Shown: piece after piece, positions 34,207-62,960 of the stretch
Layout of the letters: the number at the start of each line of letters is the position of its first letter
Numbering within the stretch: position 1 is the first letter of the stretch
NCBI GenBank assembly: GCA_001724265.1
Contig: MEDY01000189.1
Coordinates: 1 to 64,000 of the forward strand
DNA from: Rhizaria sp. SCN 62-66
Lineage: Eukaryota
Length of the DNA: 64,000 nucleotides
Reading direction: 5' to 3'
Notes under the pieces: model-generated
What the model saw: only the letters and a program-made list of their open reading frames with translations
Told to the model about the DNA's origin: nothing
Databases searched by the model: none
Program-made: the position numbers and the translations under genes

Positions 34207-36330
34207 TTACTCATTCTTGCGGCTGGGGCGCGCGCGCGAGGCCGACTTGCGCGCGGGCGACGCGGCGCCGCGCTTGGCCTTGCCCTCGGAGGCGGACTCG
34301 GAGGCGGCGGTCTTGGCGGTGGCGGAGCGGCCGGCGCGGGCGCGCGCGGGGCTGCGGCTCTTGCTCTGGCCGCGCGCGGGGCTCTTGGCCGCGTCCTTGG
34401 CCGCCTTGGGCTTCGCGGGCGCGCGCGAGCGCGAGCGCGAGCGGGAGCGGGCAGCGGCCTTAGGCTCGGCCTTGGCCTCGGCCTCAGAGTCGGACTCGGA
34501 GGCCTCGGCGGTGGGGGCGGCGGCGGCGGCGGCGCGGCTGCGGGGGCGGCGCTCGGCCGCGGCGGAGGAGGCCACAACAGCGACGGCGACGGCGGCGGCA
34601 TTGGTGGCGGCGACGGCGGCGGCGCGCGCGGCGTCGGCGGCGGACTCGGCGGCGGCGACACGGAGGTGGTACTGCTCCGTGAGCTCGGAGTGCTGCGTCG
34701 CCGTTGGGTGGCGCGAGAGGATCTTGTACACGCCGCGCACGCAGTAGAGCACGTAGGCCGCGATCATCACCCACATCAGCACCCTGAGTCGAGACGTTGA
34801 AGTTGTAAGGAGAATGACAGGATTTGATGTGAGTAAGAGTTGACGACAACGATAAACGCTAATGTAAATAAACAAGGGAAACTAAGCATAAAACGCAATT
34901 TCACGGTTAATTACTAAAAAAAATCAATTGATTGTTAAACACTACTTATCGAGATGTCTAGTGTCGAAGGAATTGTGCGTACTTGTTCTGGTAGGCCATG
35001 GGCTCGTTGAACTCGCCGGCACCCATCTTAACGATGATGAGGACCTCGGTGAGGATGATGACGACGCAGAGAAAAGCCTGGCGGCCGATGGACTTGACCG
35101 TGGGGTCCGTCATGTAGAGGTAGAACTGGCGCAGGCACGGCATCGAGAACATGAACCAGAAGAAGAGGCTAAACAAGGAGCAACAAAGAGACATGAAGAA
35201 ATAGACATGTTAGTGAGTGACTTAGAAAATTGATTTCAAATAAAGCGCAAGTTCATATAACAGCCAAGTTCATGTTTAACTAAGTACAATCAATGCACCC
35301 AATAAAGATAGCACTATCCTGTTACTGTAGCAAGCAATGAGGCGTACCGCGTGAGGTTGAGGTAGTTGGTGGGTGGCAGCCAGAGAAGGGTCTTAAGGAA
35401 GAACGCGTTGAGCTCCTCGAGCGAGATGGCGACGATGAGCACGTGCATGCCGAAGAAACGCTTGAGCGAGTCGGCCTTGGGCCAGCGGACCTTGACCCAG
35501 GACTCGGGGGCCGCGAACTGCATAAGCACGCGGCGCGCCTTGGCCGAGTACGTGGGGTACTCGTGCACGCCCTTCCACGAGTAGGACATCATCTCGAAGC
35601 GGCGGCAGATCTGCTGGCCGACGTAGATGCCGAGCCCGTTGCAGATGAGCACGTCGAGCAGCCACTGGTCCCACCAGCACTCGGCGAAGTTGGGCAGCAT
35701 GTGCGTGAAGAGCATCTCGATGAACTCCCACATGATCGACAGCGTCCACAGCGTGGCCGTGTCGCGGATAATCAGCGCCTTAAGCGCCCAGCCGATGAAG
35801 TGCGAGGCCACGAAGGCGTCGACGTTGCTCCAGACGTTGGCGACGGTGAAGGCGCAGTCTGCGGCGTAACTCTTCTCGACCAGGGGCACGCCCAGCGACG
35901 AGTCGAAGAAGGTCATCATGCGGCGCGCGTCGGCCTTAGACTGAAAGAGGATGGCGATGAGGACGAGCTCGTAGATGACTGCGAAGCCGAAGGTGATGCG
36001 CCACAGGATCGGGTGCGGGCGGATGAAGGGGCCCGAGGGGAAGACCAGCATGCCCAGCACCAGGATGAAGACGCAGGCGGCGACGAAGGCCGTGCGCGAG
36101 TTCTGCACCCAGGTCGCAGCCTCGGCGTTGGTCGAGTAGGCGAGGTAGAGAATGGAGCCCATGACGGCGCAGATGGCGAGCACGGCGTGGGGCTTGTAGA
36201 GCCACGAGACAGTCACGTCGGGCACGTACTGCTCGTCCGCGTAGCCGCTCGAGATCGACGTCAGCGGCGCAGACATGTGTGCGGACGCGGGCGAGGCGGA
36301 GGCCCGGGATGCCATCTTGGAAGAGGACAT
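34207..36330 (-). CDS. Base-exchange phosphatidylserine synthase (PSS/PTDSS family) with basic RS/SPxR-rich tail, 3 exons
   Basis: Exons 36330-35348, 35168-34983 and 34783-34207; stop is TAA. Motifs GPFIRPHPILWR, EKSYAADC, DAFVASHFIGWALKALIIRD, WEFIE..HMLPNFAECWWD, DVLICNGLGI, ELNAFFLKTLLW. Confidence 0.95.
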
Positions 36331-37792
36331 CGAGAGACCTGGACGCATAGAAGCAAGCGGAAGGCGCGTCGTTCAGGCATGTGTTATGAGGTTGGGGGAG
36401 TGGAACGGGGAAAATGAAATATGCACGTGAGAAACCAAGTGTAATGGTGCAAATTATGAATATCCAAGTAGATCGACATTATTTGGATCAGTCACAGAAG
36501 GAGAAATTGAACTATCGGTCCTTCCGATGCAGAATATTCGATACCGCGCAAGCACTTTGAACCTTCGTCACGCAGCCCTCGATCGAGCGCGAAAGAACCT
36601 GGAGTGTTGCTCTAAACGAAGCTTAATACGACATGCTAATGAATATTCAAGATAATATACGTGTATTTCTGTCAACAACGGCGCTTCGTTTATTATACTA
36701 AAATGATGCGTTGATCGGGGCTGAATTTGATTGTTTTTTGTCGATATACTGAGGTGACGAGCCAATTGCCTGTGCACTGTCGCATCGTTGCATCCGCCGC
36801 ATACAACGCCAGCTACGCACAACTGTCGCTCTGATGAGTTTCACGTGGCACTTGGGATAAAACGTTTCTTTATTGCGCTACCACATTGCTTTGGCGTCCT
36901 TCAGCAACGTTTTCTACCTTGTTGTGGCGCTGGGGCGACTTGAACTAGCGTGTGTATGTTCAAGACGACATCAGAAAACTCGGCTTCTAGTCGCCACAGT
37001 TGCGTGTGAAAACCTCAGTGTCGCGTATAGCGCCCGCCCCAGATTGGCGATGACATTGATGTGACTGTGCAAGTGCCTGGTCGCGCTTGCGACGTGGATA
37101 ACTGCGACTGTGAAGGGGATTGGTGCTTCCTAACACACTCGCTCGACGGCTGGTGACCACGGGAAAATAACTGGCTCGGGCGACACATACCGTGTTGGCG
37201 CAATACCCACTTGACTCAGAGGGCAAATAAGTGTAGTAAATACAGTTTTGATGTGTTCGGTTCTTGAAACTTGGTTTATAGCGAGGTCCAGCTGCAGATA
37301 GCGAGCGACCACAATTGTGACTGACAACCGTTGCAGTTGGCATCGGGACGGAACGATACGAATATCATGCATATAACTGCAGCAAGTCCGTCGATAGTCG
37401 TGTTTGTATATTGCCTGCGTTTTAAGATGTGATTTATTCTATTATTACTTAATTGTACTGCTTGTTGGCATGAGTAAGTGTGCCAACTCGATCCAGGACA
37501 AGGTTGACGTCGAAGTCGACGTGTCGAGCGACGCGACGCTCGCCGTTTCATATATGCTGCCATATAACACGCGTTTCGACTTGTATCATGATTTGAACGC
37601 TTACACAACCTCACAAATACTATGTATATAACTTTTCTTTTTCTTAACTCCAACATTTGCTTGCGCAGCACTCTCCCGAGCGCGCGAGTCCTGCATTCTC
37701 GCGCCCCGCTCCGTCGCCCCCTCCGCCCTCGTCCCTGCAGAGCCTGTCTGGCTCTCGCGCCCGCTTCCCCGTTAACGCTGCTGCCGCCGCTT

Positions 37793-40648: not shown

Positions 40649-43081
40649 TTACATCTCGGTGACGCTGACGTCGTCGAGCTCGGAGTCGTCGACGCCCTCG
40701 ACGGTGAACTGCGGCGGCGCCGACACGTCGATCTCGTCGCCAGCGTGCGCGTCCACGGTCGCCAACACGCGCCCGCCGCCTGCGGTCGGCACCGCGGCCG
40801 CGCCCGCGGCGGCGGCGGCGGCGCCGCCCGCGGAGGCCGGGGCGGCGGCGGCGGCGGCGCGCGCGCGGCGGGCGGCGGCGGAGGCGTCGCCTGCGATGTT
40901 GTCGAGCTCCACGTCGTCCGCGTCGTCGTCGTCGCCCGAGGCGAGGATGACGCCGCCGTCGGTGACCTGGCTGTACTCGTAGCGGCGCGCCGTCTTGGAG
41001 GGCCGCCAGAGCACGGCGATGGTTACGACGACGACGAAGTAGAGGATCTGCGAGAAGCCCGAGGTGGCGAGCCACTGCTGCTCCCAGCGTTCCCCGGGCG
41101 TGAGCGAGGCCGTGAGGTTGTAGAGCATGAAGACGACCTGCGCGGCGACGGCACATGACAAAACCAGCGCGAAGCGGCCCATGAGCCAGAGCTTCGCGGC
41201 CTGCTTGTGGGCGCGAAGGTACGCGATGGTGTCGTAGAGGCTGACCATCGTCCACCACGCGAAGAGACAGTCTAGGCAGTAGAGCGCGACGTCGAGTGCG
41301 AGCAGCGGCGCGGCGGCGGCCGAGGGGTCGAGCCGCGTGACCAGCTCGCGCGCGACCGAGAGCGCAAAGTAGGGCGCGCTCGTCAGCGCGAGCTTGCGGC
41401 GCGCGGCGCCGAGCGTGGGGCGCACGACGCCGAAGCCGACGGAGACTGCGACGACGAGCACGCGCGAGCCCGTCTGGTGCGCGCACTTGATGATGGCGCA
41501 CAGCACCAACAGAGGGGTGGCCGGCGCGCCCGCGGCGTTGTAGCGGTAATGGTCGGCGAAGCAGAGCAGCGCCTCGGCGACGCACGAGACAAGGATGACC
41601 GTGATGAAGCGCTGCAGCGTGATCTGGTCCTTGTTGTACACGGCCGTCAGCGCCAGCCAGACGAGGCAGACGAGAAGGTATGCCGCGGCGAGCGCGCCGT
41701 AGAAGGGCAGGAAGGGGAATAGGTGGCCCGGGAGGTAGCCGTAGGGGTTCATCCACTCGACCGTCCCGCTCACCGTGAAAGTCGCCACCTAGGCGCTGGG
41801 TGGCGCGGGCGCGGCCGACGAGTCGTCACCAGCGGCGTCTTCCTCGGCGGCGTCAGGATCGGCGTCGGCGGCGGCGGCAGCCACAGCGGCGGCGGCAGTG
41901 CTGAAGGAGCCGGTGGAGAGCGCTGAGAGGCGGCGCACCGCGGAGCTCTTTGAGTTCTTGCTCTTGCTCTTGCTCTTATCCTTGGCACCCGAGCCAGAGC
42001 CAGAGCTCGAGCTAGAGCCAGAGACTGAGCCCGAGATAGCCGGCGCGGTGAGCGAGTACTCGGTGTCGTCACACTGGGCGATCACGACGGAGTACTGGTC
42101 CGTGGCGTTGATCGCCAGCCGCACGCCGGGCCCGCGGTAGTCGTAGTCGCTACCGTCGCCGTCCAGGTCGCTCGCGCCGGCGTCCGCCCCAGCGCCGGAG
42201 CCGGCAGTGCCGGTGCTGGCGCTGTCGCTGGAAGGATGGAACAAAGGAGAAATAACCAGATATAAAGATGATAGTGAGAAATCAACCAACTAATACAACA
42301 CTCACTTCTCTCAAAAACCAAACAAATACAGCTGTAAATCTGATAAACACGAGATAGATCCTCAATGAGGCGTGTGGACGCACCTGCCGGGAAGCGCGGG
42401 GCCCTGCGGGGCCAGCACGGCCTTGACCGAGGCCGAGCTCTGCCCCGCCGGGATCGTCACCGTCATGCGGTGCCACGGCCGCAGCGCAGCCGAGCCCGTG
42501 CGCGGCGCGAACACCACCGGCGCGCCGCTGCTGCTGGTCTGGCCCTTGGCTCCGGCGTTGCCGCCAGTCTGCTGCTGCTGCCGCAGCTTCTCCTCTTCGT
42601 CGGCGCGCGTGTAGACGCGGCCGTCGCGGCACCAGAGGTACTCGTCGGCGGTGGCCTCGTCGCGGCCGAAGTACGTGTCTGCGGGCGCAGTGCCCTGCAA
42701 CACGAAGACATCTAGCACCGACTCCTTGTGGAAGCGCGGGTCCGAGTGCGCCGCGCCGGGCCGCAGCAGCACGCGCGCAGGCGGCACCGACAGCGCGCGC
42801 GTCACCGTCAGGTCCACCGTCACGAACGCGCGCCCGTTGCCCGGCTCCAACGCCGCGGGCGCGTCCTGCGGCGCGTAGACGCGGGCGAGCGATAGCGAAG
42901 TCAGCGTGCGCGGCGCCAACGCCTGCGGACGCACGGGGAACACCTCGGCGCGCGCCAGGGGCGCCAGCGCGGCCGCCAGGACCAGCAGCAGCGCCGCGAG
43001 CGCGAGGCGAGGCACGCGCAAGAGGCCGGGCGCGCGCGGGGATGCGGCAGCGGCGGCGGCAGAGGCGGCGGTGCAGAGCAT
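40649..43081 (-). CDS. TMEM87/GOST (lung seven-TM receptor family) protein, 2 exons, with one in-frame TAG
   Basis: Exons 43081-42384 and 42227-40649; stop is TAA. Signal peptide, YSVVIAQCD, SGTVEWMNPYGYLPG, VSVGFGVVRPTL, EQQW, LWRPSKTARRYEYS. TAG at 41789-41791 lies in frame between the luminal and 7TM parts. Confidence 0.9.
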
Positions 43082-43567: not shown

Positions 43568-45937
43568 TTACCTCCTGCGCGGCGCGGTGTCGAGCGCGGC
43601 CTGGAGCCCCGCGCGCTCATGTTCGCTCCGGAGCAGCGCTGCCTGAGCAGCGCTGAGCTGCTGCTGCAGCGAGGCCACGCGGCCCTCTGCAAGCCGCGCC
43701 TCGGCCAGCTGCGCCTCCGCGCGCTGCACCTCAGCCCGCAGCCGCGCAGCCTCGTCCTAGCCGCCCGCGGCTGCGGCTATCGTCGTCGCGGCCACGGCCA
43801 CAGACGCGGAGGCGGCGGCAGCGGCGGCCGCCTTGTCGTCCTCGAGGGCCTTGACGCGCGCGCGCAGTAGCGCCAACTCCTGCGACGCGGCGCGCAGGTC
43901 CCGCTCGGCGCGCGCGCCCGCCTCGGCCATGCTGTCCGCGCGCGCGCGCCAGTCTGCGGCCTCGCGCTCCGCCCGCAGACGCGCGGCCTCGACCGCCTCG
44001 ACCGTCTCCACGGAGGCCGAAGGGGGCTGTGCGGCGGACGGCTGCTGCGGTGCAGCGGAGGAGGAAGAGGAGGAGGAGAAAGAGGTGAGCTCTACCTCGA
44101 GCGCGCGGACCCGGGCGCGGGCGGCGTCAGCCTCGGCCTCGGCAGCGGCCTTGGCGGCACGCAACCTAGTGTGCAGAGTCAGACAGATAAACAAGAGTTA
44201 GCGGAGTAACGAAAGAGTCAAAGAGGCAGGAAAGTGAGGAGTAGAACAATTCAAGATACAAGATATGAGAGAGCTTCAATTTAATAATCATACATATACA
44301 CATTTAAAAAAAAAAAGAACGACAATTTCTTAATATGCAAAAACGGTGAACTATACTCCACGAAAGCTGAAGAGCGTAAGAATAGCGTACCTGGCCTCTG
44401 TGTCCTGCGCCTGCGACACGGCCGCGACGGCCGAGTCGAGCGAGCCCTGGCTCTGCGCAATCTGCCCCAGGAAGCCCTCGCGCTGCGCCAGGAGCGCCTG
44501 CGCCTGCGCGTTGAGGTCGGCCACCTGCGCCGAGAGATGCGCCGTGACGAGCCGGTGGTGCTCCTCGCGGTCGATGGCCGTCGCCAGCTCGGTCCGCGCC
44601 GCCAGGGCGCCGCGGCCGATGGCGCGCAGCTGCTCGTCCAGCGCCGCCTTCTCCTCCCACAGCGTCTCCAGCTGCGCCCGCAGCGCCGCCACCTGCGCGC
44701 GCAGCGCCGGCGCCGACGCCGAGTCCTCTTCCTCGTCGTACGGATCCTTCTTGCCATCGCTCTGGGGCTTGGTCTCAGACTGCTGCTGTTTGCTGTCCTG
44801 CGCGGGGTTAGCTTCGGGGGCAGCCGTCGCCGTCGCCGCCGCGTTGCCGCCGCTGTTGGCGTTGGCGTTGGCGAGCGCGGCCTTGAGTGCGGCGACCTGT
44901 TTGCGCAGCGTCGCGACCTCGCCCGCGTGCACCTCGGCGGCGCCGCGCCACTCGCCCGCCTCGGCCTGCGCCGCCGCCGCGTCCCGGCCCGCCGCCAGCG
45001 CCCGCGCGCGCGCCCGCGCCAGCTCACCGCGCGCGTCGTCGCGCTCCAGCTCGGTGCGCCGCTGCAGGTTCGCCATGCGCCGCACGTCGTCGCCGCGCGC
45101 GCCGGCCTCGGCGGTTGCCGCCGCCAGCGCTGTCTGGGCCGCGGTGAGCGCGGCGGCGGCGGCGGCCTGCGCGGCGCGCGCGTCGGCCAGCTGCGCGCGC
45201 TCGGGCAGTGCGTCAAGCGCCTCGCGCAGCGCGCGCGCCTCGTCCGAGCGCGTCTGCAGCGCGGCCTGGGCCTGCGCCAGCCGGCTCGCTGCGTCGGCGC
45301 GGGCGGCCACCACGGTCACCAGCTGCGCCCGGACAAGCCCCGTGCGCGCGTCCGCCGCCTGCGTCTCGGCGCGCGCGTCCGCCAGCTGCTTCGCCAGCGC
45401 GGCGATCTGCGCCGCCAGCTGCTCTGAGCTCGCGCGCGAGAGTCCCGCCTCGCGGTCGCGCTGCTCTAGCGCGGCCGCCTGCGCGCGCGAGGCGGCGAGC
45501 AGGGCCTGGAGGCGCTGCAGCTGGTCCGCCTGCTGCGCGCAAAAGCCCGCCACGGCCGCGTAGTTGCGCTTCAGCGTCAGCACGTACTCCAGGTCCATCT
45601 GCAGCGTCGCCAGGGAGGAAATGTCGCCCGCAGAAGGGGCGGGCGCAGGTGCAGATGATGAGCCCGCTGCCGCAGAGGCTGATGCTGTGGCCGCTGATGA
45701 TAACGATGTCGAGGTTGCAAAGGCTGACTGTGACGTCTGCGGTCCTTGGGTTGCGCCCGATGAGGCCGCAGACGCGAAGAAGAGCGAAGGACCCATCTGT
45801 GGCTGCGGCTGTTGCTGACCAGAGGAACTAGGACTGGGGAGAGCTGAAAAGTCGCCGAAGTCATTGGCTGTAGCTGAAGCCGTGTTGTCAGTGCGGCGAC
45901 GGCCCGCAAGAATGGGGTTTGCCGTCGACGTCGACAT
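43568..45937 (-). CDS. Long coiled-coil protein of unknown function, 2 exons, with one in-frame TAG
   Basis: Exons 45937-44391 and 44165-43568. Heptad-rich A/E/Q/R/L sequence continues for 62 codons beyond TAG 43757-43759 to TAA 43568-43570. That end could instead be a GTAAAA donor. Confidence 0.8.
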
Positions 45938-46324: not shown

Positions 46325-48615
46325 ATGAAGGGTTTCTGCCTTTTGTTTGCTTTGGCTGCGCTTTTTGCAAGCGCCCTCGCTTACACAGCGGTACGTATCG
46401 CGCCCTATCCCGCCTGCCATGTTGCCCCCAAAGGGGAACTGGCTCTGCTCTCGCTTCCTTTGCTTTCGCCCATTTCCAGCATCTGCACATCCATGTTTGA
46501 ATCCCTGCGTACTTCCATGCGATGTTATACTCCGCAGAGAATCTCGTGCAGTGCTGGTGAGCGCGTGTGTCCGCCTCTTTTGCCACTCCAAGCCCCCTTT
46601 TAAGTCTTCTCGAGCCACTCCCCTCTACCAATCGACTCAGTGCTTTCCTCTCCTCTCTCACACCCCATTCTCTTCACCCCTATCCATTTTCACGCGTCCT
46701 TCGCCTTGCTTTACTATAGGAGGAGAGTCTTGCAAACCGTGTGACCACGTCTGCGGGGCCTAGTGCTTCGTTCGTGGATATGTACTCGGAGACTCACGCC
46801 GAGGGCGAGATGTCTGCTGAGGAGGCCTACCAGCTCGAGGCCCAGCAGGAGGCCGACGACGCCGCTCTCGTTGAGATGTCGTCTGCCGTCGCCTTCGAGA
46901 CTGAGCTCGATGCCGCGGCCGAGACCGAGACCGAGGCCGAAGTTGACCGCCGCCGCCGTCGTCGTCGTCGTGGCGGCATCATCCGCCGCATCTTCGGCCG
47001 CCGCCGTCGTCGCCGCGGACGTCGCGGACGTGGACGTGCCGCTCCCCCGCGCATCATCCACCGCGCTGCCCCCGCTGCTCCCGCTGCCCCCGCAGTGGAC
47101 AACACCGCCGTCCAGGCCGCGGTCGCCGCCGCCCGTGCGAAGGCTGAGGTCGAGGCCGCCGCCGCCGCCAGGGCCGCCCGCGCCAAGGCCGACGCCGACA
47201 TCGCCGCCGCCGCCGCCGCCGCGCGCGCCAAGGTCGAGGCCGAGGCCCGTCTGGCCGCCGAGGCCAAGGCGCGCGCCGAGGCCGAGGCCCGCGCGCTGGC
47301 CGCTGCCCGCGAGAAGGCCGCCCGCGAGGCGCGCGAGAAAGCTGCGCGTGAGGAGGCGATCCGCGCCAAGGAGCGAGCTGTCGCCGAGGGCAAGGCCAAG
47401 GCCGAACGCATCCGTCTGGCGCGCATCGCGACGCAGAAGCGCATCGCCAACGCGAACCAGAACGTGATCAAGAAGATCGAGAAGGCTCGCCGGCGCTCGC
47501 AGAGCTGGAAGAACCGCGAGAGCGCCATTAAGACCTCGCACGACACGATCGCGAGCGACTTCAAGAAACGCGAGGCCGTCAAGACTCAGGGCGCGGTGCA
47601 GATCGAGGCCGCCGTGGCGAAGCTTAACGTCCTCGCTCGCGAGATCAAGCGCGAGATCAAGGAGGTTGAGCAGAAAAAGGTCGAGCTCGACGCCAACACG
47701 CGCATCATGGCGCGCGCCGCCATCAAGAAGGAGGGCTCGTACCTCGGCGGTCACATCTCGTACCAGCCCGACGTGGCGGGCCCGCGCTTCCAGGCCGAGG
47801 CCAACGGCGCGCCCGCCGTCATCCAGACGCTCGAGCTGGGCAAGAACATCGCGCCCGCTGAGCACGGCCGCGGCTTGATCGACGACAAGTTCAAGGCCGA
47901 CTTCGCGTCCAACCTGCGCGCCGGCAACCTCGAGGCGCAGGCCCGCGCGGACCGCCCCGGCATCCTGGAGGACATCCGCCACGCGGCCGCGTTCGACGAC
48001 GGCGCTGACGGCCCCACCAAGGCTCAAGCCGAGCTCTCGGACAAGTTCCTCGACGGCTCCTTCCTCGAGACGCTCTCCGAGGCCGACGCCGAGGCTGAGG
48101 CCGAGCTCGATGCTGAGCTTGACGCCGAGGAGGCCGCTATGGCCGAGGCTGAGGCCGACGCCGAGGCTGAGGCTGAGGCTGAGGCTGAGGAGGAGACTGA
48201 CGCTGACTCTGAGGCCGATGCGGACGCTGACGCCGAGGAGGAGGCCGACGTCGACGCCGATGCTGACTCTGAGGCCGACGCCGAGGAGGAGGCCGAGGCC
48301 CCCGAGTCGTTCATGGAGACCGAGGCCGAGGCTGACGCTGCGGCCCTCAAGGACGCCGAGATCGTCAAGATGGAGGCCGAAGCCAAGGCGGCCGAGGACA
48401 AGGCCATGGCGCGCGCCCGCTCTGAGATCAAGAAGATCGACAACTTGGCGGAGCAGCACAAGTCTAACCACGCGCGCCTCACCTCGACCTTCGACTCGAG
48501 CCGCGCCAACTCCGCGGCCTCCGACCTCGAGGCCACCACCAAGACCAAGAAGCTCGACCAGGACCTCTCCAAGTTCGAGCAGCTCGCCAAGCAGGTCGAG
48601 GCCATGGTTGAGTAA
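46325..48615 (+). CDS. Secreted preproprotein (signal peptide, acidic pro-segments, poly-Arg segment, coiled coils), 2 exons, about 653 aa
   Basis: Exon 1 (46325-46390) encodes MKGFCLLFALAALFASALAYTA. Phase-0 intron 46391-46719. Exon 2 (46720-48615) ends in TAA. Strongly biased codon usage suggests high expression. Confidence 0.88.
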
Positions 48616-49152: not shown

Positions 49153-52100
49153 TCAGAAGTGGTTATCCCTGATGTCCACCTCGATCTCCTGTCCTAGGCT
49201 GAACACCGTCCCCCCGGTTCCGGCTCCCGCGCCGCCGCTGCGACCTAGGCTCACACCGCTGCCAGTAGCCGTCGAAGAAGAAGAGGAGCCACCGCTGACG
49301 CTGGCGCTACCGTCGAGCGCGAGCGCGAGCGCTGCCGCGGTCGAGGGCGGCGCGGCGGGCGCAAGCGTGGGCGTGCACAGGTGCGCCAGCGCCAGCTCGC
49401 CCGCAAGCTCCGCCGCCAGCAGCGCGAACGACGGCGCGCTCGACAGCCGCGGCAGCCGCGGCGCGCGCGCGTCCGCAGACTCGCCGTCGCTCGCTGTCTC
49501 TCTCGCTATCGGGCCTGAGCCGGGGCTTGCGGGGCTGTGCTGCGACGGGAACTCGGGCGCCTGCGCCTGCCATGCCACCGGCGCGGGCTTGGACCAGAAG
49601 GACGCGAACAGCGAGAGCGGCCCCGACGACTTCGGCCGCGCCGTCTTGTGCGACTGCGACTGCGAGCTGCTGTTGGAGCTGCTGTTAGAGCCATTGCTGT
49701 TGCTGCTGCCGTTGTTGCTGTGCTTCGGCGCCATGAACGCGGCGAGCGCGGCCTCGAGCGCGGCGACGTGCGCTGCCGCAGCGTCGCGCGCGCAGCGCAG
49801 CTCCGCGCCCCGCAGCGGCGGCGGCAGCGCGGGCGGCGCCAGGCACGCGCCGCCCAGCGCCAGCGCCTCGCCGCGCGACAGCCGCGCCAGCGCGCGGGCC
49901 AGCGCCGCCGCCGCCTCCGCCTCCGCAGCAGCCTCCGCGGCAGCCTCGGCAGCAGCCTCCGCGGCGGTCTCGGCGTCAGCCTCGGCGTTCGCAGTGCAGC
50001 CACCCGCAGTCGCGCTGCAGCGGGGCGCCGCGTCCGCGGCGCACTGCTCCTGGAGCGCGCGCGCGGTCTCGGTGGCGGCGGCGAGCAGCCCCAGCACGTC
50101 GGCGACGCGGAGCCCTTCGAGCGCGGCCCGCAGGCGCGCGGCGCCGGCGTCCGGCGCGGACCGCGCGAGCGCGAGCACGGCGCGCGCGGCGACTGCGGCT
50201 ACGCCGCGCCGGGCGCCCGCGCGCTCGCGCTGCAGCCACCCCTCGGCCAGCGGCGCCGCCAGCGCCAGCGCGTACAGGTGACCCAGCGCGGCGCGGCGCT
50301 TGGCCGCGGACGCGCCCGCGATGGGCACCACAGCCAGTACGGCGTCCCACTCGCTCCCGCCCGTCGCCGGCGCAGACGCGGCCGCATGTTCACGCGCGGT
50401 GCCCGCGGACGTCACGGAGCCTGCGGCGGCACCCGCAGAGGGCGGGTGGCCGGCAGCGAGCGCGGCAACGGGGTCTGTCCCCGCAGCGGCGGCGCGCGCG
50501 AAGGCGGCGCGAGCGAAGAGCGGCGGCGCGGGCGCGTGCAGATAGGGGTTGAAGCTGGGGTGCGCGGCCACGGCGGCGAGCGCGCGCGGGGCCGCCGCGA
50601 AGGGCCGCAGAGGCGCCAGCAGCGCAAGCGTGAGGCGGGCCGTGTAGGCGCGCGCCACGGCACTGCCGGCGCGGCACGCGCGCGGACACAGGTAAGGCGT
50701 CTGCAGCGTCAGCAGCCTCAGCCACGGCGCCGCGTCCTCCTCGGCGCGCGCGAGGCACCGCGCGCAGCGGGGCTGCGGCTGTGGCAGGAGCAGGGGGCGG
50801 AGGAGCGCGGCGGCGACGTCGGTGTGGGCGCCAACGGCGGGGCAGTCGCCGTGCGCGGCCGCCGCAGCCGCGCTGCCGCATCCGCCGCCGGCGGTCGCGC
50901 CCGCACCGACGCCGAACACGGCGCGAGGGCTGCCGGCTCCATTGCTGCTGCTGTAGCCGGTGGGCGCCGGCGCGGCGGGAAACGGGTAGGCGTACGTGTT
51001 CGAGTCCAGGTCCGCGCAGGCGCCGCAGCGTGCGAGCGACAGAAAGCCCGGGCCGGCCAGCCCCGCCGCAGGCAGCAGCGCCGCAGCAGCGTCACCGCCG
51101 CCGCCTGGCGAGGCGAGGAGGCGCACGGCCGAGGCGCCGGCGGCGTCAACCGCGGCCTGCACAAGCCGCCGCGAGCGCAGCGCCTTGGCCGCGAACGACG
51201 ACAGAGAGGGCTCGCCCGCGCTCGCGGCCGCGGCGGCGGCGGCCGAGGAGGACCGCAGCAGCGCCCGGGCCGGGACGGAGGCCGACACGGCGGCCGCCGG
51301 CGCAGACGACACCTGCTGGTGCTGCTGCTGTGCGCCATGCTGGGCACTGTGTTGCTGCTGCAACGACGTGCGCGGAAGCAGCAGCGGGAGCGAGCCGCCG
51401 CCAACGGCGCCGCCCGCGCGCAGCAGCGCCGGCGGGGCCGCCACGGCCGCGCCCAGCACTGCCCGCGCCGGCGCGCGCGGCCTCAGCGCCGCCACGGCCG
51501 CCGCCGACAGCAGCGTGCCAGTGCCGGGGCCGGGGCCGTTGGCCGCGGGGCCGGCACAGTCGCAGTCGCGGGCAACCCTGTACTCGGCGTCAGCATCGTC
51601 GTCGTCGCCGTCGTCGTCGTCGTCGAGACCGCTCCCCCGGCCGCTGGCGGCACCGCCCTGCTCGCGCCCCTCAGCGCCCGCGCGCACTGGTGCAACAGCC
51701 CCGTCGGCGGCCCGCGGCGCGGGCGGCGCGGGCGGTGCGGGCGGCGTGGGCGTGACCGCGAGCAGCTGCTGCACGCGGCACGCGGCAGCCAGCGGCACCA
51801 GCGCGGGCGCCAGCGGCGCGTCGTGCGGTGCCACGTGCTCCGGCCGCGGCGCGGGCATCAGCGCCCGCTGCGCCCGCAGCGCGCCCTGCGCGGCCACAAA
51901 CATGCCGGAGCCATAGACAGGGCCGGAGCCAGTGTGGCTGAGGCCGCGGCTGTGCGCGGCGAGGCCCCAGGAGCGGAGCGCGCGGCGCGAGAGCGGGAGC
52001 GTGGCCGCGGCGGCCTCGACCGCAGTCCCGCCCAGCGCCAGCACCAGCGGCGCGGCCGCGAGACGCCGCAGCAGGTACAGGTCCACGACGCCCACCACGA

Positions 52101-55100
52101 GCGCGCGCGGCGTGTGCAGCGACACGCGCGCGCCCGCCGCAGACGCAGACGCGCGCGCGAACGCGGCTGCGGCTGTCGCGGCAGCGGCCAACGCTGCGGG
52201 CAAGGTGGAGGACGAGGCGGCCGTCGCGGCGGCGACGGCGGCGGCGGCGCTGGCTGCCGTGGCCGCCGCCGCAGTGGCCGCCGCCGCAGTGGTCGCGGCC
52301 ACGTCCGCGGCCGTGAGCGCGGCGATGATGGGCTCTAGTAGTGGGTTGCCGACCGAGAGCAGCGGCACCACGCCGCCCGCCAGCGCCGGGCCCGCCAGCG
52401 CCGCACCGCGCGGCTGGGCGGGCGCGACCACGGGCAGCGGCGTAAGCGCGGCGTGCGCGGAGAGCGGCGCGGCGAGCGCGGCGACGGCCAGCACGGCGCG
52501 CGACACGGCGGGCGCCGAGGGGCCCGCGACAAGCACCGGCACGCCCGCCAACACGGCCGCCCACAGAGTCGGCAGCAGCGGCGCGAGCCGCGGGCCCAGC
52601 ACGGCCAGCGCGTCCACGGCCGCGTGCGGCGCGTTGAGGCCCGCCAGCGCCGCGGGCGAAGCCGAGACGGCGTACGGTAGCGCAGCTGGCGCGCCCGCAG
52701 CAGGCGCAGGCACGGGAGTCAGCGTCTGTGCGGTCGTCGTCGGGGGGCAGAGCAGCGGCCGGTATGCGGGGCCGGCCCAGACGCGGCCCCAGTCGCACAG
52801 GCCGCGGGGGGCCCCGCAGCCGCCGCTCCCGCTGCTGTCGCAGCTGGTCGAGTCGAGCAGGGCCGAGAGGGCGCGCCACGGGCGCTGGCGCGGGCGCAGG
52901 GCGCCGAGACCGTGGCTCGCGCCCGCAGCCTCCGCGAGCACCGGAGACACCGCAGCCAGCATCCCGACTGCGCCGGAACCAGCATCCGCATCAGCACCAG
53001 CATCAGCATCAGCATCAGCATCAGCGTCAGCGTCAGCGTTCGTGTCAGCGTCAGCGTTCGTGTCAGCGTCAGCGTCAGCGTCAGCGTCAGCGTCAGCGTC
53101 AGCGTCAGCGTCAGCGTCAGCGTCAGCGTCAGCGTCAGTGCGGGTACGGGCGCAGGTGCGGGCGCTCTCGAAAGCGGCGGCCCGCTGCAGCGCGGCGTCG
53201 AGCGGCGAACGCGGAGCCGCCAGCAGCAGTGCCGCCACGGCCGCCGCGCCCACCGCCAGCCCCGCCGCGGGGTCGCAGCTCGCTGTGTGCGCTGTGTGTG
53301 CTGTGTGGTGGAGCACCGAGGCCATGAGGCGCCGCGCGCACTGCAGCATGGGCCCCAGCCCCGCGGCCCCGCCCAGCGCCACCCGCTGGCCCTGCGCGCC
53401 CGCCCCCATCGCTTGCGACGATGTGTCGTCTGCGGGCGCGAGGGCCTGCGCGGCAAGCAGCGGCAGCAGCCCCGCGCGCGCGGGCGGGGCCCAGAGCGCC
53501 GCGGTGGCCGCCCACGCCGCGCACAGCACCGCCGCGGGGCCCGCCAGCGCCGCAGACAGCTGTACCCCGGCCACCGTCAGTTCGCCGGCCGCCGTCAGCT
53601 CACCGACCGCCGTCAGTTCGCCGACAGGCTCTGATGCTGTCGCAAGTGCAGTCGCTACGGTTGAGGCATCACTCTCGGGCGATGTGGCTCTGTGCTGCTG
53701 CTGCTGCTGCTGCTGCTGCAGCTTACGGTGTCGCCGCCGCAGCTGTCGCAGCGCGCGCGCGCGGAGCCTGTCGGCCGCGCGCTCGGTGGCGGCGTGCGCG
53801 TCGGCCCGGCTCAGCGCGCGCGCCTCGGCCGCGAACGAGTCCACCACACACGGCGACTGCGCATACGACTGCGGCTACAACTGTGCGTCTGACTGTGACC
53901 GTGGTGCGCAGGGCAAGAGCCCCCAGAGCGCGGTGGCGGCGTCGGCGGCGAGCGCGAGTCCCAGGGCGTGGAGCGGCAGCGGCAGCAGCGCGAACACGGC
54001 CTGCTGCGCGAACCCGCGCGGGCTACTCTCGTCGCGCACGCGCGCGAACCGCGCGTACCCGTACAGCACGCGCACGCCAGCGCTGGCAGCGTCAGAGGCG
54101 CCTGCGTGGGCGGGGGCGTGGGTGTCGCTCTGGAGCAGGGCTGCGGCGGCGGCGCGGGGCGCTCCCAGGGACGGCAGCTGCGGGTGCGGCCGCCACCCCC
54201 AGTCCGCAGCAGCGTCGGTGTCAGCGGCAGCAGCGGCAGCAGCGGCAGCAGCGGCAGCAGCGGCAGCAGCGTGAGCAGCGTGAGCAGCGTGAGCAGCGTG
54301 AGCAGCGTGAGCAGCGTGAGCAGCGTGAGCAGCAGCGGAGCCGGTCTGCGCGAGTGCTGGAGCGACCGTAGCGGCGTCGGCGAGCGCGCGCGGGGCGACG
54401 CAGCTGGCGCCCCAGAGCCCGCGCGCGACGGCGCGCTCGGGGCACTCGTTGCTGTGGCTGCTGTGGTGGCCGTTGTGGCCGCCGCCGCTGATGCTGCTGC
54501 TACTGCCGTTGCTGTTGTTGCTCCTGGCGCTGGCGCCGCCGTTGTCGCCGCCGTCGTCGCCGCTGTCGCCGCCGCTGTCGCCGCTGTCGCTGCTGCTGCA
54601 GTCGCCGAGCCCCTCGCCCGCCCAGCCCCAGGGCCGCGCGGAGTGCCTCGTCGCACGGGCCGCCCGCGCCGCGCGCGTGGCAAGGGCGGCGCGAGACTGG
54701 GGTGACTGGGACTGGGACTGGGACTGGGACTGGGGCTGGGGCTACTGAGGCTGGGATGATTGAGGCTGGGACGATTGAGGCTGAGGATGAGACTGTTTGT
54801 CCCGCTTGCGCTCCAGCAGCGCCCGCAGCCCGCGCGCGGCCGCGCACCGCGACAGGCCCGCATCGCAGTCTGCGTCACCGACAACGCTCGCACGGGCGCT
54901 GCCCCCATTGCCGTGACCGTTGCTCCTGCTTGCAGTAGCAGTGGCCGCAGGAGCAGCAGCAGTGAGCGGCAGCGGGGGGCGCGCGAGCGCGACCTGCACG
55001 GTGAAGCAGTGCGTGGTGTCGGTCTCGGCGGGCGAGAAGGTGGCCGAGTCGGGGAAGGCGAGCGCGCAGGCGGAGGCCACGGCGGCGGCCGAGAGCCCGT

Positions 55101-55290
55101 GGACCGGCGGCGGCGGCCACAGCGCGTACGGCCGCGGGCCGTGGTAGAGGTCGAACGTACACGCGCCCAGCAGCGTCACCCAGGGTGAAAATGCCGCCGG
55201 CGGCGCGGCGTGCCGCAGCGGCACCGCGGCGCGCGCGGGCGCGCGGGCGGGCCCGACGGAGGCGGGCGCGGGCGAGGGGGCCGAGGGCAT
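49153..55290 (-). CDS. DENND6: DENND6/FAM116-like Rab GEF, single frame of about 2045 aa with two in-frame TAG
   Basis: ORFs 54742-55290, 53875-54075 and 49153-53847 share one frame. The only interruptions are TAG at 54742-54744 and 53875-53877; stop is TGA. Motifs in order: CTFDLYHGP, LAFPDS, LYGYARFARVRDESSPRGFAQQAV, LWAAVLAGVPVLVAGPS..AVLAVAALAAPL, VVGVVD, FNPY, LYALALAAPLAEGWL. Confidence 0.88.
52995..53138. repeat. (GCGTCA)n hexamer repeat encoding Asp-Ala repeats in DENND6
   Basis: Tandem TCAGCG/TCAGCA units, directly visible. Confidence 0.9.
54223..54336. repeat. 9-nt tandem repeats encoding poly-Ala and (His-Ala-Ala)n in DENND6
   Basis: AGCGGCAGC units followed by AGCAGCGTG units, directly visible. 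Confidence 0.88.
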
Positions 55291-56080
55291 CGGGCGGGGC
55301 GGCCGGCGAAGGCGGCAGCGCGGGACTGCTGCGCGGAGGGGACGCGATCTCGTGGGCTGCGGGCAGTTGAGTTAGGAATGTGTTCTAGTCAGCACTAAGG
55401 GCAGATGAAAAACTGGGAGACATAGGGGAAGCAACGAGCTGGTGAGATAGATTTGAAAAAGGCAGGGTGAACTTGAAACCATAGTACTATTAAGACTGAC
55501 TACGAGTTGATTTCGAGGTTTGAGACGATATAATACAAGTATGTGAATACACTGTCATAAAACATCACATTATTAGTAGTAAATCATGCAACGGTAATAT
55601 ATAGTATGAATAGGCTGGTTGCTCCCGTTTGCCACAGGGACGCGAGACTGTGGGGGAACCTGCTCGTAACGCCATAAAATAAGGTTCTGCTTGGTCGAAC
55701 TCGATATTACCATCGTCAAATGCCACACAATCAAAGTATGGTGAACAACCTACTTGTTTTTACTTGTTCCGTTAATTATACTTTTCGAATTTGTTATGAT
55801 GTTCCTATAGCCGATGAGACAAGGAAAGTCGCGTCCCACACCAACTCACGTCACCACCTCCGCAAGTCAGCCTCCCAGCCTCTTGAGAGTTGAATCCAAA
55901 GCCCAGTTTGTTTCTTTAATGTGGCTACTACTTAATCCATCATGTTTGTTTCACGCTATCTGTATTCCGCTGCATTTTCTGTCTCCAAGCACCGCTCACC
56001 CCTTCTCTTCAAAAATTTATCCTTCATGCCGTCGACACAAACGCGTGTGCTTGTATGTTCACTGCCAGGGCATTCCCGCG

Positions 56081-57898
56081 ATGAATCCATTCCCATTGGT
56101 GGTATTCATCCTGGTGATCGTTGGAGTCATCATCACTGTCAACTTCAATGTCTCCTTCCCCATCCCTTGCTGGCCCTTTCCCAACAACGACAGCAACGCT
56201 ACCAACGGCAACGCCGCCGTCAATAACAACGACAACACGATCAACGCCGCCGTCGCGGCCAACGCCGCCGCAGACCCCGAGGCGGCCGCGGCTACCGCCG
56301 CCGCGGCGCCGGTGCGGCGCGTGCGCGTGAGCTACACGGCGGTGCCCATCGCGGGCGTGCTGCTGCTGCTGCTGGGCGGCGCCATCGGCGGCGACGACGT
56401 GTGGGCCGGGCTCGCGGGCGACAACGACATCCAGCCCTACACGATCATGATTCTCTTTATGGCGCTTGCGTACGTGTGCATCTCGCTCGACTTCACGGGC
56501 GCGCTGGCTTTCGTCTCGCTCAAGGTCGTCGCCGCCGCGGGCAGCTCCAAGCGCCGCCTCTTCGTCGCCTTCTTCTGCCTCACGGGCGCGCTCACGGCCT
56601 TCACGTCCAACGACGTCGTTATCCTCACGCTGACGCCCGTTGTGGTTTACTGCGCGCACTTCGCGCAGACCGACGCGGAGCCCTACATCTTCACGATGTT
56701 CTACGCCGCCAACCTCTTCTCCTTCTTCTTCATCATCTCCAACCCGACCAACATCATCGTCGGCGAGGCCGTCGGACTCTCATTCGCCGACTTCATCTCC
56801 TACATGCTGTTGCCCGGCTTTGTCACCGTGCTCGCCACGCTCGTCGCGCTGTACCTCTACTTCCGCTCCTCCCTCGACGGCGCGCTCGCGATGCCCGCGC
56901 TGGACCCCGCCAAGGAGCTGCAGTCGCGCCGCGGCGCGCTCGTCCACGCCGCCACGCTCGGCGTCTGCATCCTCTTCATGTGCGTGTCCTCGCTCGTGCC
57001 CGGCGTGCGTCTGTGGATGGTTGCGCTGGGCGCCGGCATCGTCTCGCTCGTCTACAACCTCTTCGCGCTGCCCTGGCGCCTCCCCGCGGGCGCGCCCGGC
57101 AGCGGCCGCGGCGGCGCGCGCGGCGGCCACCGCGCCGGTGCGGGCGACGCGCACGCGCAGCACGGGTACGTCGAGTTCGGGGACGAGCAGCTCCAGCAGC
57201 CCGGGCACGGGGGCGCGCTTGGCGTCATCGACCTCGGCGGCAACAGTAACAGCAACATCAACAACAGCGGCTTGCACTCGGTTGTGATCGGCGACGCGAG
57301 CGTTAGCGTGACTATTAGAGGCGCCGACGGCGGCAGCGGTGGCAGCGAGGTTGTCGTGGCGGGCATCGAGCCGAAGCCGCAGGCGCACATGCCGATCGTC
57401 AAGGCGCTGCCGTGGGCACTGATGCCCTTCGTGTTCGGCATGTTCTGCCTCGTGCAGGCGCTGCTCGTGCACGGCTGGATTGACGAGTTTGCACGCTGGT
57501 GCATTGGTGCCATGGGCGGCGTTGACGCCCTACGCGACTCGGACGGCGGGGCGGCGCCGTTGGTCACTTCCTTGTTCATGATGTTTGTCACAATTGTGCT
57601 GTGCAACGCGGCCAACAACCAGCCCGCAACGATTTTGCTTACGCGCATCCTCATTTCGCCGCGCATGAAGGCGATGGGCCCGTTAGCGCACCGTGCCGCT
57701 GTGTTGTCCGTCATTGCTGGCTCAAATATTAGTGCGTGCTTCACCACGATCGGCGCACTTGCTGGGATCATGTTCTGCGGCGTACTCGCCATCCACAAGA
57801 TCGAGATGTCCTACGGTCGCTTCATCAAGGTCGGCGTTATCTCGCTCCCCATTGCGCTCGCCTGCGCGCTCGCGATCACTGCCGTCGTCGCGATTTGA
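56081..57898 (+). CDS. ArsB/NhaD-superfamily permease (arsenite/metalloid efflux-type)
   Basis: Likely start MNPFPLVV at 56081; stop is TGA. About 12 TM segments. Motifs AYVCISLDFTG, LTAFTSNDVVILTLTP, ISNPTNII, CNAANNQPATIL, GSNISACFTTIGALAG. Confidence 0.85.
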   Translation: MNPFPLVVFILVIVGVIITVNFNVSFPIPCWPFPNNDSNATNGNAAVNNNDNTINAAVAANAAADPEAAAATAAAAPVRRVRVSYTAVPIAGVLLLLLGGAIGGDDVWAGLAGDNDIQPYTIMILFMALAYVCISLDFTGALAFVSLKVVAAAGSSKRRLFVAFFCLTGALTAFTSNDVVILTLTPVVVYCAHFAQTDAEPYIFTMFYAANLFSFFFIISNPTNIIVGEAVGLSFADFISYMLLPGFVTVLATLVALYLYFRSSLDGALAMPALDPAKELQSRRGALVHAATLGVCILFMCVSSLVPGVRLWMVALGAGIVSLVYNLFALPWRLPAGAPGSGRGGARGGHRAGAGDAHAQHGYVEFGDEQLQQPGHGGALGVIDLGGNSNSNINNSGLHSVVIGDASVSVTIRGADGGSGGSEVVVAGIEPKPQAHMPIVKALPWALMPFVFGMFCLVQALLVHGWIDEFARWCIGAMGGVDALRDSDGGAAPLVTSLFMMFVTIVLCNAANNQPATILLTRILISPRMKAMGPLAHRAAVLSVIAGSNISACFTTIGALAGIMFCGVLAIHKIEMSYGRFIKVGVISLPIALACALAITAVVAI

Positions 57899-58697: not shown

Positions 58698-60856
58698 TTA
58701 GATGTCTTGGATGGCCTGGACGATGGTGTGAAGGTCCTCACGAGTGAAGCCGCCACTCTCGTCGATTGCAGTGACGAGGTCATCTTCCGTCGGCCACATA
58801 AACCAAATATCATTGACAGAGCGGCCCGCAGCTGTGTTAACACGGACGATGCGGTTCGCCACGACCTGCAGTAACGCGGCAGCGAGCAAGCGCCACTCCC
58901 CCTTGCCAAAGGGCGGCAGTGCGTTACGAAAACGACCATAAAACGTGTCACAAAATGACAGCACGGCACCGACAGGCTCAGTATGCGGCCGGTCCGCACG
59001 CACCAAATTCATGATCGAGTTGAGGTGCGGCCGCAGCACGGTCTTGAGCGCGATCAGTCGTCCGTCCGTCACAGCGGGCAGCGTGATCGTCGGGAAGCTC
59101 GTGTCCTCTGCAGCAGGCGAGTCAGCTGCAGCCTCGGACGCAACGGCAGCCGCAGGCTTAACGGGCGGGAAGAGCACGTTGTGCGATATGTCACTGGTCC
59201 ACTGGAAGACGACGCGCGTGATGCGGCCCACGGGCGTGAGATACCGGTCCAGCGCGGCCCCGTCGGCCGAGGTCAGTGCCTCGTGCAGCTCGTGGTCTGC
59301 CGCGGCCGCCGCGCGCGCAGCGGCGCGCTCCTCCCGCCGCGCGGCGCGCAGCTCGCGCCGCGTCTCCTCGTCCCAGCCATCGCCGTCGCTCTGGTTGCTG
59401 TTGTCCCCGCTGTCGTGATCATCGTCGTCGCCGTCGCCGTCGGGGTCGTAACGCTCGAGCCAGGGCAGCCAGGCGTCGCCACCCTCCTCTTGGTCCGGGT
59501 CCGCGTCCGCGCCCGCACCGTCGTCGCTCTCTTCCTCGTCCTCGTCCTCCAGCTGCTCTTCCTCGCTGCCGCCACTCTGGTCCTTCGAAGCGGCGGCAGC
59601 CTTCTCCTTCTCTTTGTCGGCAGCGCGCTGCTGCTTCTGCTGCCGCTTCTGTTGCTTCAGGATCTCCTGCTGCTGCCGCTCCACCATCCGCGCCTGCTCG
59701 GCCGCCTCCTCATCCTCGTCAGCCTTCACCTGGTCAGCCGTGGCTTGGTTTGCCTTGGCCATGGCCTCGGCCTCGGCCGCAGCACTCTCGCTGCTCTTGC
59801 CACTCGCACTCGCAGCGCTGGCCACGGCGTTGCGGCCGGGGCGGACGCGCTCGGTGACCTGAAGCCCTACCACCTCCGGCGTCGGCTCCGTGGCGGCCTT
59901 CTTCTTGCTCCCAGCCTTCTTGCCGCCCACAGCGTCGGCCTTAGCGCTCGTAGCGTCATTCTTAGCGCTGTCGGCGCTCTTGGAGGCGTGTGCCTGGGAG
60001 CTCGTCGGAGCTGCAGCCGCCGTCACAGACGCCCTGACAGCTGTCTCCGCAGTCGCAGGCGCAGCAGGAGCCTTCGGAGCAGCCGCGGCCTTGGTGGCGC
60101 CGACCGCCTGTTCCAGAGCCACCTTGTCAATGGGGTGGCCCTGGCTCGGGCTCCGCGAATGAGCCTGAGTCTGCGTCTGCGTCTGGGGCTTGGCCGCTGC
60201 CGCGGGCTTAGCCGCCGCCGCGGGCTTGGCGCCCGCCGCCGAGGCCGCGGGCGGGGGCCGCGCGGCGAGGTCCCTGGAGAGCAGCGAGTCCTCCGAGAGT
60301 CCGGCGCGCGCGGCGGCGGCGCGCTGCGCGCAGGCCTGGGAGCAGTAACGCGCGACTTCGACGACGCCCGCGGCGGCCGCGCTCAGGCGCGCGTCGGGGC
60401 CCTGCGGCAGCACCGTGCCGCCGCCGCGCGCACCCGCAGCGGCCCGCGCCTGCTGCTGTTGCGTGTGCTCGCGCGCCTGCTGCGCGGCGGCCAGCGCGTC
60501 GGTCAGCAGCTCGCGCGACGTCCGCGGCCCCAGCGCGCGCGCGCAGCAGGGGAACGCGCACTGCAGCAGTTCCGTGCGCTCGATCAGCACCGCGTCCCAC
60601 TGCGCGGGGTTCAAAACTTTCGTCTGCGGGAAGGATAATGACAACGACAGCGGGTGATAGATGACTGTGAGCAGATGAGATTCAATGAAGCGTGGACGAG
60701 TTCGGGAAAGAGCAATGCTTGAGAGAGACGTACCGCGCGCGCAAGGGCGTCTTCAGAGACCTCCTTCTGACAGAGGATTTCCTGAACCTTGAGGGCAAAC
60801 TGCGAGGCCCGGAGTGCGGCCTGCTGTGCCGTCATCGACTTCTTGGCGGCCGACAT
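58698..60856 (-). CDS. RPAP2: RPAP2/Rtr1 family RNA polymerase II CTD phosphatase-like protein, 2 exons
   Basis: Exons 60856-60734 and 60623-58698; stop is TAA. LNPAQWDAVLIER..CAFPCC and RYCSQAC match the Rtr1/RPAP2 zinc-binding pattern. Long acidic linker and a helical C-terminal domain follow. Confidence 0.75.
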
Positions 60857-61340: not shown

Positions 61341-62960
61341 TCAAGCGATCCCGTGCGCCTTGAGCAAGGCGTCGACGGCGACGCGGACGTCTGCGAAGTC
61401 GTGCTTGGGCTGCTGCAGCGGGAGCGAGGAGCGCGGGATCGACCCCGTGCGCACGAAGACCGAGTCCCAGCGCGGGCCCGCTCTGTTGGCGCCCTCGATG
61501 TCCGCCGCGGGGTTGTCGCCGACGCCGTAGCAGCGCGCGACGGCGGCCCCGTGCGCGGCGGCCTGCGCGTCGAGCAGCGCGTCGGCGTGCGCGTAGGTCG
61601 CGGCTGTGGGCTTGCCGCAGACGACGGGATGCAGCGGCTCGCCTGTCACGCGCGCATAGAGGTACCCCAGCACCTCGGTAAAGGCGCCCTGCGCCAGCCG
61701 TGGGACGTCGAAGCGCGCCGAGTAGAGCAGGTCCGGGTTGGACAGGTAGAAAGGCGTGTGGCGCGGCGCGTAACCCCCCCGCAACGCCTGAGCGACCGTG
61801 TAGAGCTGCGACGGACCCAGGTGCGGCGCGCCGCAGTAGGGCGCAGAGGCGCGCTGCGCGCCCGCGGGCTCGTGCGCGGGGTCCTGCGGCAGCCCGAACC
61901 CGCTCGCGCCGCCGGTCGACGCGATCTCGGCCCCGGCCTCAGGGGCAGCAGAGGAGGCGAGGTTGGTGGTGCAGAGCTTGCTGTAGGTGTGCGAGGCGCC
62001 CTCACCGCCCGTGCACTTGCCCTTGTCCTTGCCTCTGCCACACTCACGCTCTGCGGCGCGCTCGGCGACGCGCTCGGGGCGGCCCGCGAGGAGCACGTCG
62101 AGGCAGACCTGGAGGTCGACGTACCAGTCGCGCGGGTCGTGGAGTACCAGCACCGCCTTGACCTCGCCCAGCAGCGCGCGCGCCTCGGCGACGGCGTCGC
62201 TGCCGTCCGCGCGGCGCCCGTCAGACGCGCGCGCCGTGGGGTAGTGCAGCGGGTCGAGCGAGGTGTGCGGGGACAGCAGCGAGCCGAATTGCGCGTGCAC
62301 GTCCGCCGGCGTGATCACGCGCGAGAAGCCGTACGCGCGCGCGACGGCCGCGCAGTCGCGCATGCCAACCACAAGCACCAGGTCCTCGCCGTGGCGCGCG
62401 GCGAGCGGGCGCAGCGGCGAGTGAGATAGCACCACCTGCTCGGGCGCCACGGGCAACGCGAAGAGCTCCGAGAGCTGCTGCGCCTTGACCGACTCGAGCA
62501 CGCCGCCACCGTTGGTCAGGTAGATGTGCGGCAAGCCCGCCGCAGCAACTGGGGCGGGGAGCACATATAGCAAGGAGGACAAGGTGGGGTCGTGTGATGT
62601 GAGTTAAAGCAAAGCAAAGCGACAACGATGCGAGTGTAGAGATGGGCGCGTTTATGAAGGGCAAGCGAGGCGAAGTGGAACTGATTAGATATGAGACACA
62701 AGGAAGAGTCTTATGGGAAAAGTACACGCGACACAATAAAAACAGATGTTAACTGTGAGATATTGAGCAAGGATACGCGTTCACGTACCTTTGTGGAGCG
62801 CTTCCTTGGCTCCCGGGATGGGGTTGCCACTCTTGAGAAGAACACCATCGATGTCGAAGGCAAAGGCGGGCAGCGCAGGCTTGGCAGCAGATGCAGCAGC
62901 CGAAGAAAACGCACGCACACCTAAAGAGGAAGCGACACGTGCAACAGCCTTACGAAGCAT
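61341..62960 (-). CDS. HAD-IIA hydrolase, CECR5/HDHD5-like, with mitochondrial presequence, 2 exons
   Basis: Exons 62960-62789 and 62548-61341; stop is TGA. MLRKAVARVASSLGVRAFSS presequence. Motifs FAFDIDGVL, LTNGGG, SHSP, SNPDL, PRLAQGAF, CGKP, GVGDNPAADIEGAN, VRTG. Confidence 0.92.

Follow-up and report, generated by a model that had tools for sequence, protein, structure and literature searches.

Why should one long open reading frame be interrupted twice by TAG and by no other stop? On the minus strand of the window (the whole stretch of 64,000 nucleotides that was analysed), the frame running from 55371 to 49153 comprises 2,072 codons with two internal TAGs and a terminal TGA at 49153-49155, and each of the other five frames across the same span contains 13-39 stops. 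Both TAGs are genuine: the reading RSQSDAQL*PQSYAQSPCVVDSF given in an earlier note on this DNA is exact on the minus strand, with the TAG at 53875-53877, and, as stated there, neither TAA nor TGA occurs in the frame before the terminal TGA. The open reading frame downstream of this TAG measures 1573 codons from stop to stop, not the 1564 given before.

Two TAG codons in a single gene

The earlier note had held that two TAGs are unlikely for a pseudogene. This argument is weak, because under the codon usage of the gene 66-72% of single-base nonsense changes lead to TAG, and random nonsense would therefore give TAG at both sites with a probability of 0.44-0.51. The conclusion itself, that the gene is not a pseudogene, probably holds, but on the genome-wide evidence of TAG in coding exons described below, and its two TAGs are probably read through; their cause is a property of the code of this genome and not of this gene. 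The Gln-rich surroundings of the TAGs, which had implied a Gln meaning, are uninformative, because the first TAG (54742-54744) aligns with Ser codons (TCG/TCA) of the neighbouring tandem units and not with CAG, and evidence from across the genome favours Glu. The protein is of low complexity and rich in Ala and Pro. A six-base tandem repeat at 53000-53140 codes for a long DA tract within the gene.

Table 1. Features of the window, with the two TAG codons of the gene and the neighbouring genes
Feature	Position	Strand	Remark
Single open frame, first ATG 55290 to TGA 49153-49155	49153..55290	-	2,045 codons if TAG is sense
N-terminal non-repetitive segment FSPWVTLLGACTFDL...LAFPDS	54955..55209	-	matches itself alone in the assembly
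First in-frame TAG, codon 210	54742..54744	-	in (S)SQPQ tandem tract
RGFAQQAV motif	53995..54018	-	between both TAGs
Second in-frame TAG, codon 499	53875..53877	-	context DAQL-TAG-PQSY; putative Glu
In-frame TAG in neighbouring gene	41789..41791	-	flanked on either side by coding signal; upstream of GOST 7TM domain
In-frame TAG in Ala-rich, coiled-coil-like frame	43757..43759	-	weak upstream coding score
Phosphatidylserine synthase	35314-36372	-	Pfam
GOST 7TM	40649-42301	-	Pfam
ArsB/CitMHS transporter	55811-57898	+	Pfam
Rtr1/RPAP2	58698-60752	-	Pfam
HAD hydrolase	61341-62603	-	Pfam

A second intact copy of the gene was sought, and its N-terminal part matched no other place in the assembly; two SPA-family matches elsewhere in the genome were considered as duplicates and rejected, being Afi1-like and DENND11-like instead. 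The name DENND6 given to the gene before could not be sustained: no DENN, Avl9 or SPA profile or sequence match to its product was obtained by Pfam, PDB, homolog search or phmmer (which returned two matches, both to unrelated repeats). We take the DENND6-like motifs, RGFAQQAV among them, to have been the sole ground for the family name; the low complexity of the product may mask a true DENN match. A cut-off product of the gene, 182 aa long, is present in the protein collection used for the homolog search, and annotation under the standard code cuts both this gene and the gene for eRF1 short.

The second TAG lies within a DNA contig of sequencing run X3 (53731-54209, 0 differences; possibly the source sample) and is bridged by a contig of run X4 (53814-54057), a polyA metatranscriptome of another study, with no change listed at the codon and no joint (in such comparisons an unlisted difference is not proof of identity, nor is a contig proof of transcription). 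An intron at the second TAG was rejected because the RNA run lists no joint there. Depth in X4 was absent over the AT-rich upstream stretch at 55321-56128, and runs X5 and X11 gave little cover. In X4 RNA contigs of a related strain we counted 22 variant codons, 13 of them synonymous; between the two TAGs six of nine were synonymous, and past the second TAG there was a single variant codon, a non-synonymous one.

In-frame TAG codons elsewhere in the genome

The genome assembly (G000; 34.9 Mb in 714 contigs, eukaryotic) has GC-rich exons with sparse introns that are AT-rich, it encodes dyneins of the axonemal type, and its sequence occurs in bioreactor, wastewater and activated-sludge runs. Among 142 protein kinase (Pkinase) matches nine carried a lone TAG, of which five were exonic and four were intron acceptors. 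Another 16 TAG-bearing matches included five exonic cases (SUV3, two UCH proteins, one of them USP5-like, a TKL kinase and a Rab-like GTPase), the remaining 11 being dropped as intron acceptors or intronic, and exonic TAGs were found in UBE2J and eRF1 as well. TAG sites are seen again in further assemblies (run X3, locus L194), which possibly derive from the same sample. UAG is a very rare codon in this genome: no exonic TAG was found in the dynein heavy chains (37,320 codons, which hold 2,365 GAR codons), nor any TAG in the matches to ABC_tran (0/20), AAA (0/22) and WD40 (0/149). Single TAGs in kinesin and DEAD matches were rejected as intron acceptors, and none of eighteen further TAG fragments gave a Pfam domain that clearly extended across the TAG.

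Usage of the three stop codons was surveyed with a dicodon model over 784 kb (~2% of the genome), a score >0.15 being taken as coding signal. Coding signal on both sides of the triplet was found for 10 TAGs and for no TAA or TGA. Coding signal upstream was followed by non-coding sequence in all 63 cases of TAA and all 48 of TGA; after TAG it was followed by open coding sequence in 10 cases, by intermediate sequence in two and by non-coding sequence in 21. Three of nine inspected TAG cases were intronic, and the others were antisense, internal or ambiguous. Off-frames held 83 TGA and 24 TAG, and when the threshold was lowered to 0 the two-sided counts were 26 TAG, three TGA and one TAA, several of them antisense frames. 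A TAG filter based on GC3 was discarded, since it was swamped by antisense frames.

The 38 gene ends of the 784 kb that had no donor-like motif upstream comprised 23 TAA, 15 TGA and no TAG; those with such a motif comprised 21 TAA, 13 TGA and six TAG, one of the TAGs being ambiguous (L166:1755), and these counts come from a loose motif filter and a small sample. UAA and UGA are thus kept as terminators, and at a score >0.15 they were not found internally in the 784 kb. The sole possible TAG terminator lies at L166:1753-1755 (minus strand), 19 codons ahead of a TAA and directly past a PLA2G12-like domain.

UAG is almost certainly used as a sense codon throughout the genome, and, because of this, both TAGs in the gene would be ordinary codons of one product of ~2,045 residues. 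Which amino acid UAG specifies is a less settled matter; the reading that we favour, to which we give a probability of roughly 0.7, is that of a variant nuclear code with UAG as a rare sense codon for Glu and with UAA and UGA as stops.

A tRNA(CUA) and an altered eRF1

A pattern search for CUA tRNAs gave 25 matches, one of which is a tRNA (G000:C84:76008-76080; Rfam RF00005, 58 bits). By DNA search it exists in one copy, on a contig of the gene style usual for the genome; a second CUA tRNA may have been missed, because 63 of the 506 Rfam candidates were scored. Under the favoured reading this tRNA, apparently derived from tRNA-Glu, would be charged with Glu and would decode UAG, and the gene at 49153..55290 would be translated over its full length into one protein.

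The gene for eRF1 (G000:C63) itself contains an in-frame TAG (L121:1594-1596, minus strand), which is colinear with human Glu107 and sits in an otherwise strongly biased coding sequence. The other PF03463 locus of the genome reads, as we take it, as a Pelota-like gene. The rare codon AAA follows the eRF1 TAG directly. Within its GTS motif the protein shows T32S, as against Thr in 116 of 117 homologs; it also has G57S, T58K, L124M and K130Q, with L69 kept. Its closest relative, P0004 (86% identical), is among the homologs with Thr32; it shares T58K and has Val at 107, which disfavours strict conservation of Glu in the lineage, and its genome could show the state that preceded the code change. 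In the available portions of the published work on Iotanema, Thr32 is described as bonding to the G of UAG and as replaced in this UAG-only recoder (T32G), and the alignment there shows T58K in standard-code ciliates too, so T58K is not specific (PMC5304391). By analogy, T32S may weaken recognition of a third-position G.

The presence of a TAG in the eRF1 gene may be due to chance (at a rough rate of 0.2 TAG per 1,000 codons, ~8% of genes of 435 codons would carry one), or the TAG may be a feedback element. An alternative reading is that UAG is ambiguous, the single tRNA(CUA) competing with an eRF1 that still partly recognises UAG, so that full-length and truncated products are mixed; the TAG in the eRF1 gene may then act as a feedback switch, and the amino acid would be the same Glu. 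The extreme rarity of TAG, its absence from the dynein heavy chains, the one tRNA gene found, the mildness of T32S and the position of a TAG in the strongly biased eRF1 sequence itself all agree with such a state. We nevertheless regard it as unlikely, since no clean TAG terminator occurred among the 38 gene ends (L166:1755 being ambiguous), since eRF1 is essential and needs efficient read-through, and since, at the rough rate above, ~8% of genes of this length would carry a TAG by chance. A more elaborate scenario is tentative and rather doubtful: an early-stage code with UAG as Glu and with UAA and UGA as stops in a GC-rich, probably non-ciliate protist, marked by one tRNA(CUA), the mild T32S and very rare UAG, in which the UAG in the part of the eRF1 gene that codes for the N domain would be a negative-feedback switch that balances termination and read-through.

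The amino acid probably inserted at UAG

The sharpest pointer to Glu is the body of the tRNA(CUA), as judged by sequence likeness. Of the 40 other tRNA sequences that were recovered, tRNA-Glu(CUC) resembles it most (64% identity), followed by Glu(UUC) (55%), Asp (53%), Gln(CUG) (45%) and Gln(UUG) (37-40%, according to which ends are taken). The acceptor stem TCCCA...TGGGA is common to the tRNA(CUA) and both Glu tRNAs, the Gln tRNAs start with GG and end with CCT, and a long variable arm is absent from the tRNA(CUA).

Residues aligned with TAG in homologous proteins indicate a hydrophilic residue, with Glu the most likely one, on the basis of few informative sites. At the eRF1 site the homologs have Glu in 107, Asp in nine and Val in one (P0004), and neither Gln nor Leu in any (117 homologs, three multi-domain fusions being left out of the 120 listed). 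A TAG in the kinase hinge falls in a column with 20 Glu, four Asp and one each of Pro, His and Asn, but no Gln, among 27 paralogs; the best PDB match, KSR2, has Ser there, CaMK1 has Gln, and RAF kinases have Gln. The UBE2J column (59 aligned of 63) has 20 Asp, 19 Glu, eight Asn, seven His, two Ser, two Gln and one Gly, and no Leu. The other sites are less telling: four of the other kinase TAGs align with variable columns and one lies in an insertion, the SUV3 column has Asp in human chains and Ser in the other chain, the column of L058 has Ala or Lys in its best PDB matches, and USP5 has Cys at the UCH site. Pfam scores summed over 10 sites were 529.5 bits for Glu, 525.4 for Gln, 524.3 for Lys, 518.6 for Ser, 509.8 for Tyr, 506.5 for Leu and 503.7 for Trp, the margin of Glu over Gln being ~4 bits, of which 2.4 bits came from one site. 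A test of the residues neighbouring 26 sites picked by hand, calibrated in-sample, preferred Glu to Gln by 7-16 bits, with Leu and Arg ranked first and the score outside the ranges of both Glu and Gln.

A code with UAG as Gln, of the type of Iotanema and Hartmannula, is improbable in our judgement, even though Gln is the assignment most often reported in the literature and second in the Pfam sum and CaMK1 has it at the hinge column, and even though one ubiquitin-like copy (on a contig of atypically low GC3) has TAG where its paralogs carry Gln. The tRNA(CUA) is Glu-like and not Gln-like, Gln is absent from the eRF1 and hinge columns (0/117 and 0/27) and nearly so from that of UBE2J (2/59), and the neighbour-residue score falls outside the range of true Gln sites. 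Still less probable is another residue, be it Leu as in the rhizarian exLh, Lys, Ser or Asp. Val in the closest eRF1 relative, the first rank of Leu in the neighbour-residue test and the occurrence of Asp in every column examined speak for this; against it, Leu and Ser score 23 and 11 bits under Glu in Pfam, Leu is found in 0/59 and 0/117 sequences at the UBE2J and eRF1 sites, the long variable arm of Leu and Ser tRNAs is missing, and the identity to tRNA-Asp is 53% as compared with 64% to tRNA-Glu. The standard code, with the gene as a pseudogene or a product of assembly errors and the other TAGs as scattered null alleles, can be set aside as highly improbable: two TAGs by themselves fit random nonsense, the DENND6 identity rests on motif likeness and one variant codon lies past the second TAG, but the single eRF1 gene that was recovered would be cut in its N domain, a cognate tRNA(CUA) exists, and the internal stops are specific to TAG and recur in run X3 and locus L194 (possibly the same sample).

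Lineage markers and additional loci

The organism is probably not a ciliate, as judged from GC content and gene structure. In a quick tree its eRF1 grouped with P0004 alone, on a long branch. Three loci (L124, L127 and L128) encode a divergent ubiquitin that starts with MSMQIF, and several single-unit genes end in RGG-HPQ; the MSMQIF start recalls the insertion at the ubiquitin junction of Rhizaria, as far as this is described in the accessible text of two reports (PMC12930898, PMC3014934). No polyubiquitin junction was recovered.

The sole SSU rRNA found (L120:1501-5945, on G000:C706) is very divergent and contains four group I intron matches. Its first insertion holds a His-Cys-rich ORF, presumably resembling a twin-ribozyme homing-endonuclease intron, and this rRNA may come from another organism and not from the main genome. 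At L126 (G000:C681), where the contig has a GC3 close to 0.5, a ubiquitin-like domain with an internal TAG is fused to a tail that we take to resemble a phage tail-fibre chaperone; the locus is possibly a mobile or decayed element. In the window, an orphan of 631 aa (46720-48615, plus strand), which contains a stretch rich in Arg and Gly as well as repeats rich in Glu and Ala, gave no Pfam match and no usable Atlas match.

Comparison with known variant codes

UAA and UAG are nearly always reassigned as a pair. Where UAG alone is reassigned it stands for Leu, Gln or Ser, as far as the available portions of the sources describe: Leu in exLh, Gln in Iotanema spirale, Ser in Scotinosphaera, Leu or Gln in phyllopharyngean ciliates and Gln in Protocruzia tuzeti (PMC5304391, PMC11687900). 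These codes resemble the present one in a sense UAG, in UAA and UGA as stops and in a CUA suppressor tRNA, and Iotanema in addition in an altered Thr32 of eRF1 (T32G there, T32S here; PMC5304391). The probable Glu would place the present genome outside their Leu, Gln and Ser; moreover, its UAG usage is far below that of the phyllopharyngeans (78-91% of genes), and the L69A of exLh eRF1 is absent.

Glu as the meaning of UAG appears in the same kind of partly available sources only alongside a reassigned UAA, which means Lys in Oligohymenophorea sp. PL0344 (PMC10553269) and Glu in peritrichs (PMC11687900) and Blastocrithidia (PMC12153298). The first of these, in which UGA is the stop, is alike in that UAG is read by a tRNA-Sup(CUA) nearest to tRNA-Glu; it differs in that UAA still terminates here, that one CUA tRNA gene was found as against ten, and that UAG is very rare in a GC-rich genome which is probably not that of a ciliate. 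Peritrichs and Blastocrithidia likewise read UAG as Glu by tRNAs derived from tRNA-Glu, but there UAA is reassigned together with UAG, whereas here it is a plain stop. AT pressure, invoked for Blastocrithidia (PMC12153298), cannot explain the change here, because the coding DNA is GC-rich. A literature search of listings and the beginnings of abstracts, with subscription papers largely outside its range, yielded no code combining UAG as Glu with UAA as stop.

If true, a code in which UAG alone has changed to Glu would fill in the missing variant, and it would be the intermediate that is expected to precede the codes with UAR as Glu and to those with UAG as Glu and UAA as Lys. Low use of UAG together with a single tRNA makes this genome a candidate for early reassignment, in which codon capture and an ambiguous intermediate could be distinguished, and the natural pair of eRF1 T32S and tRNA-Glu(CUA) is directly testable in yeast.
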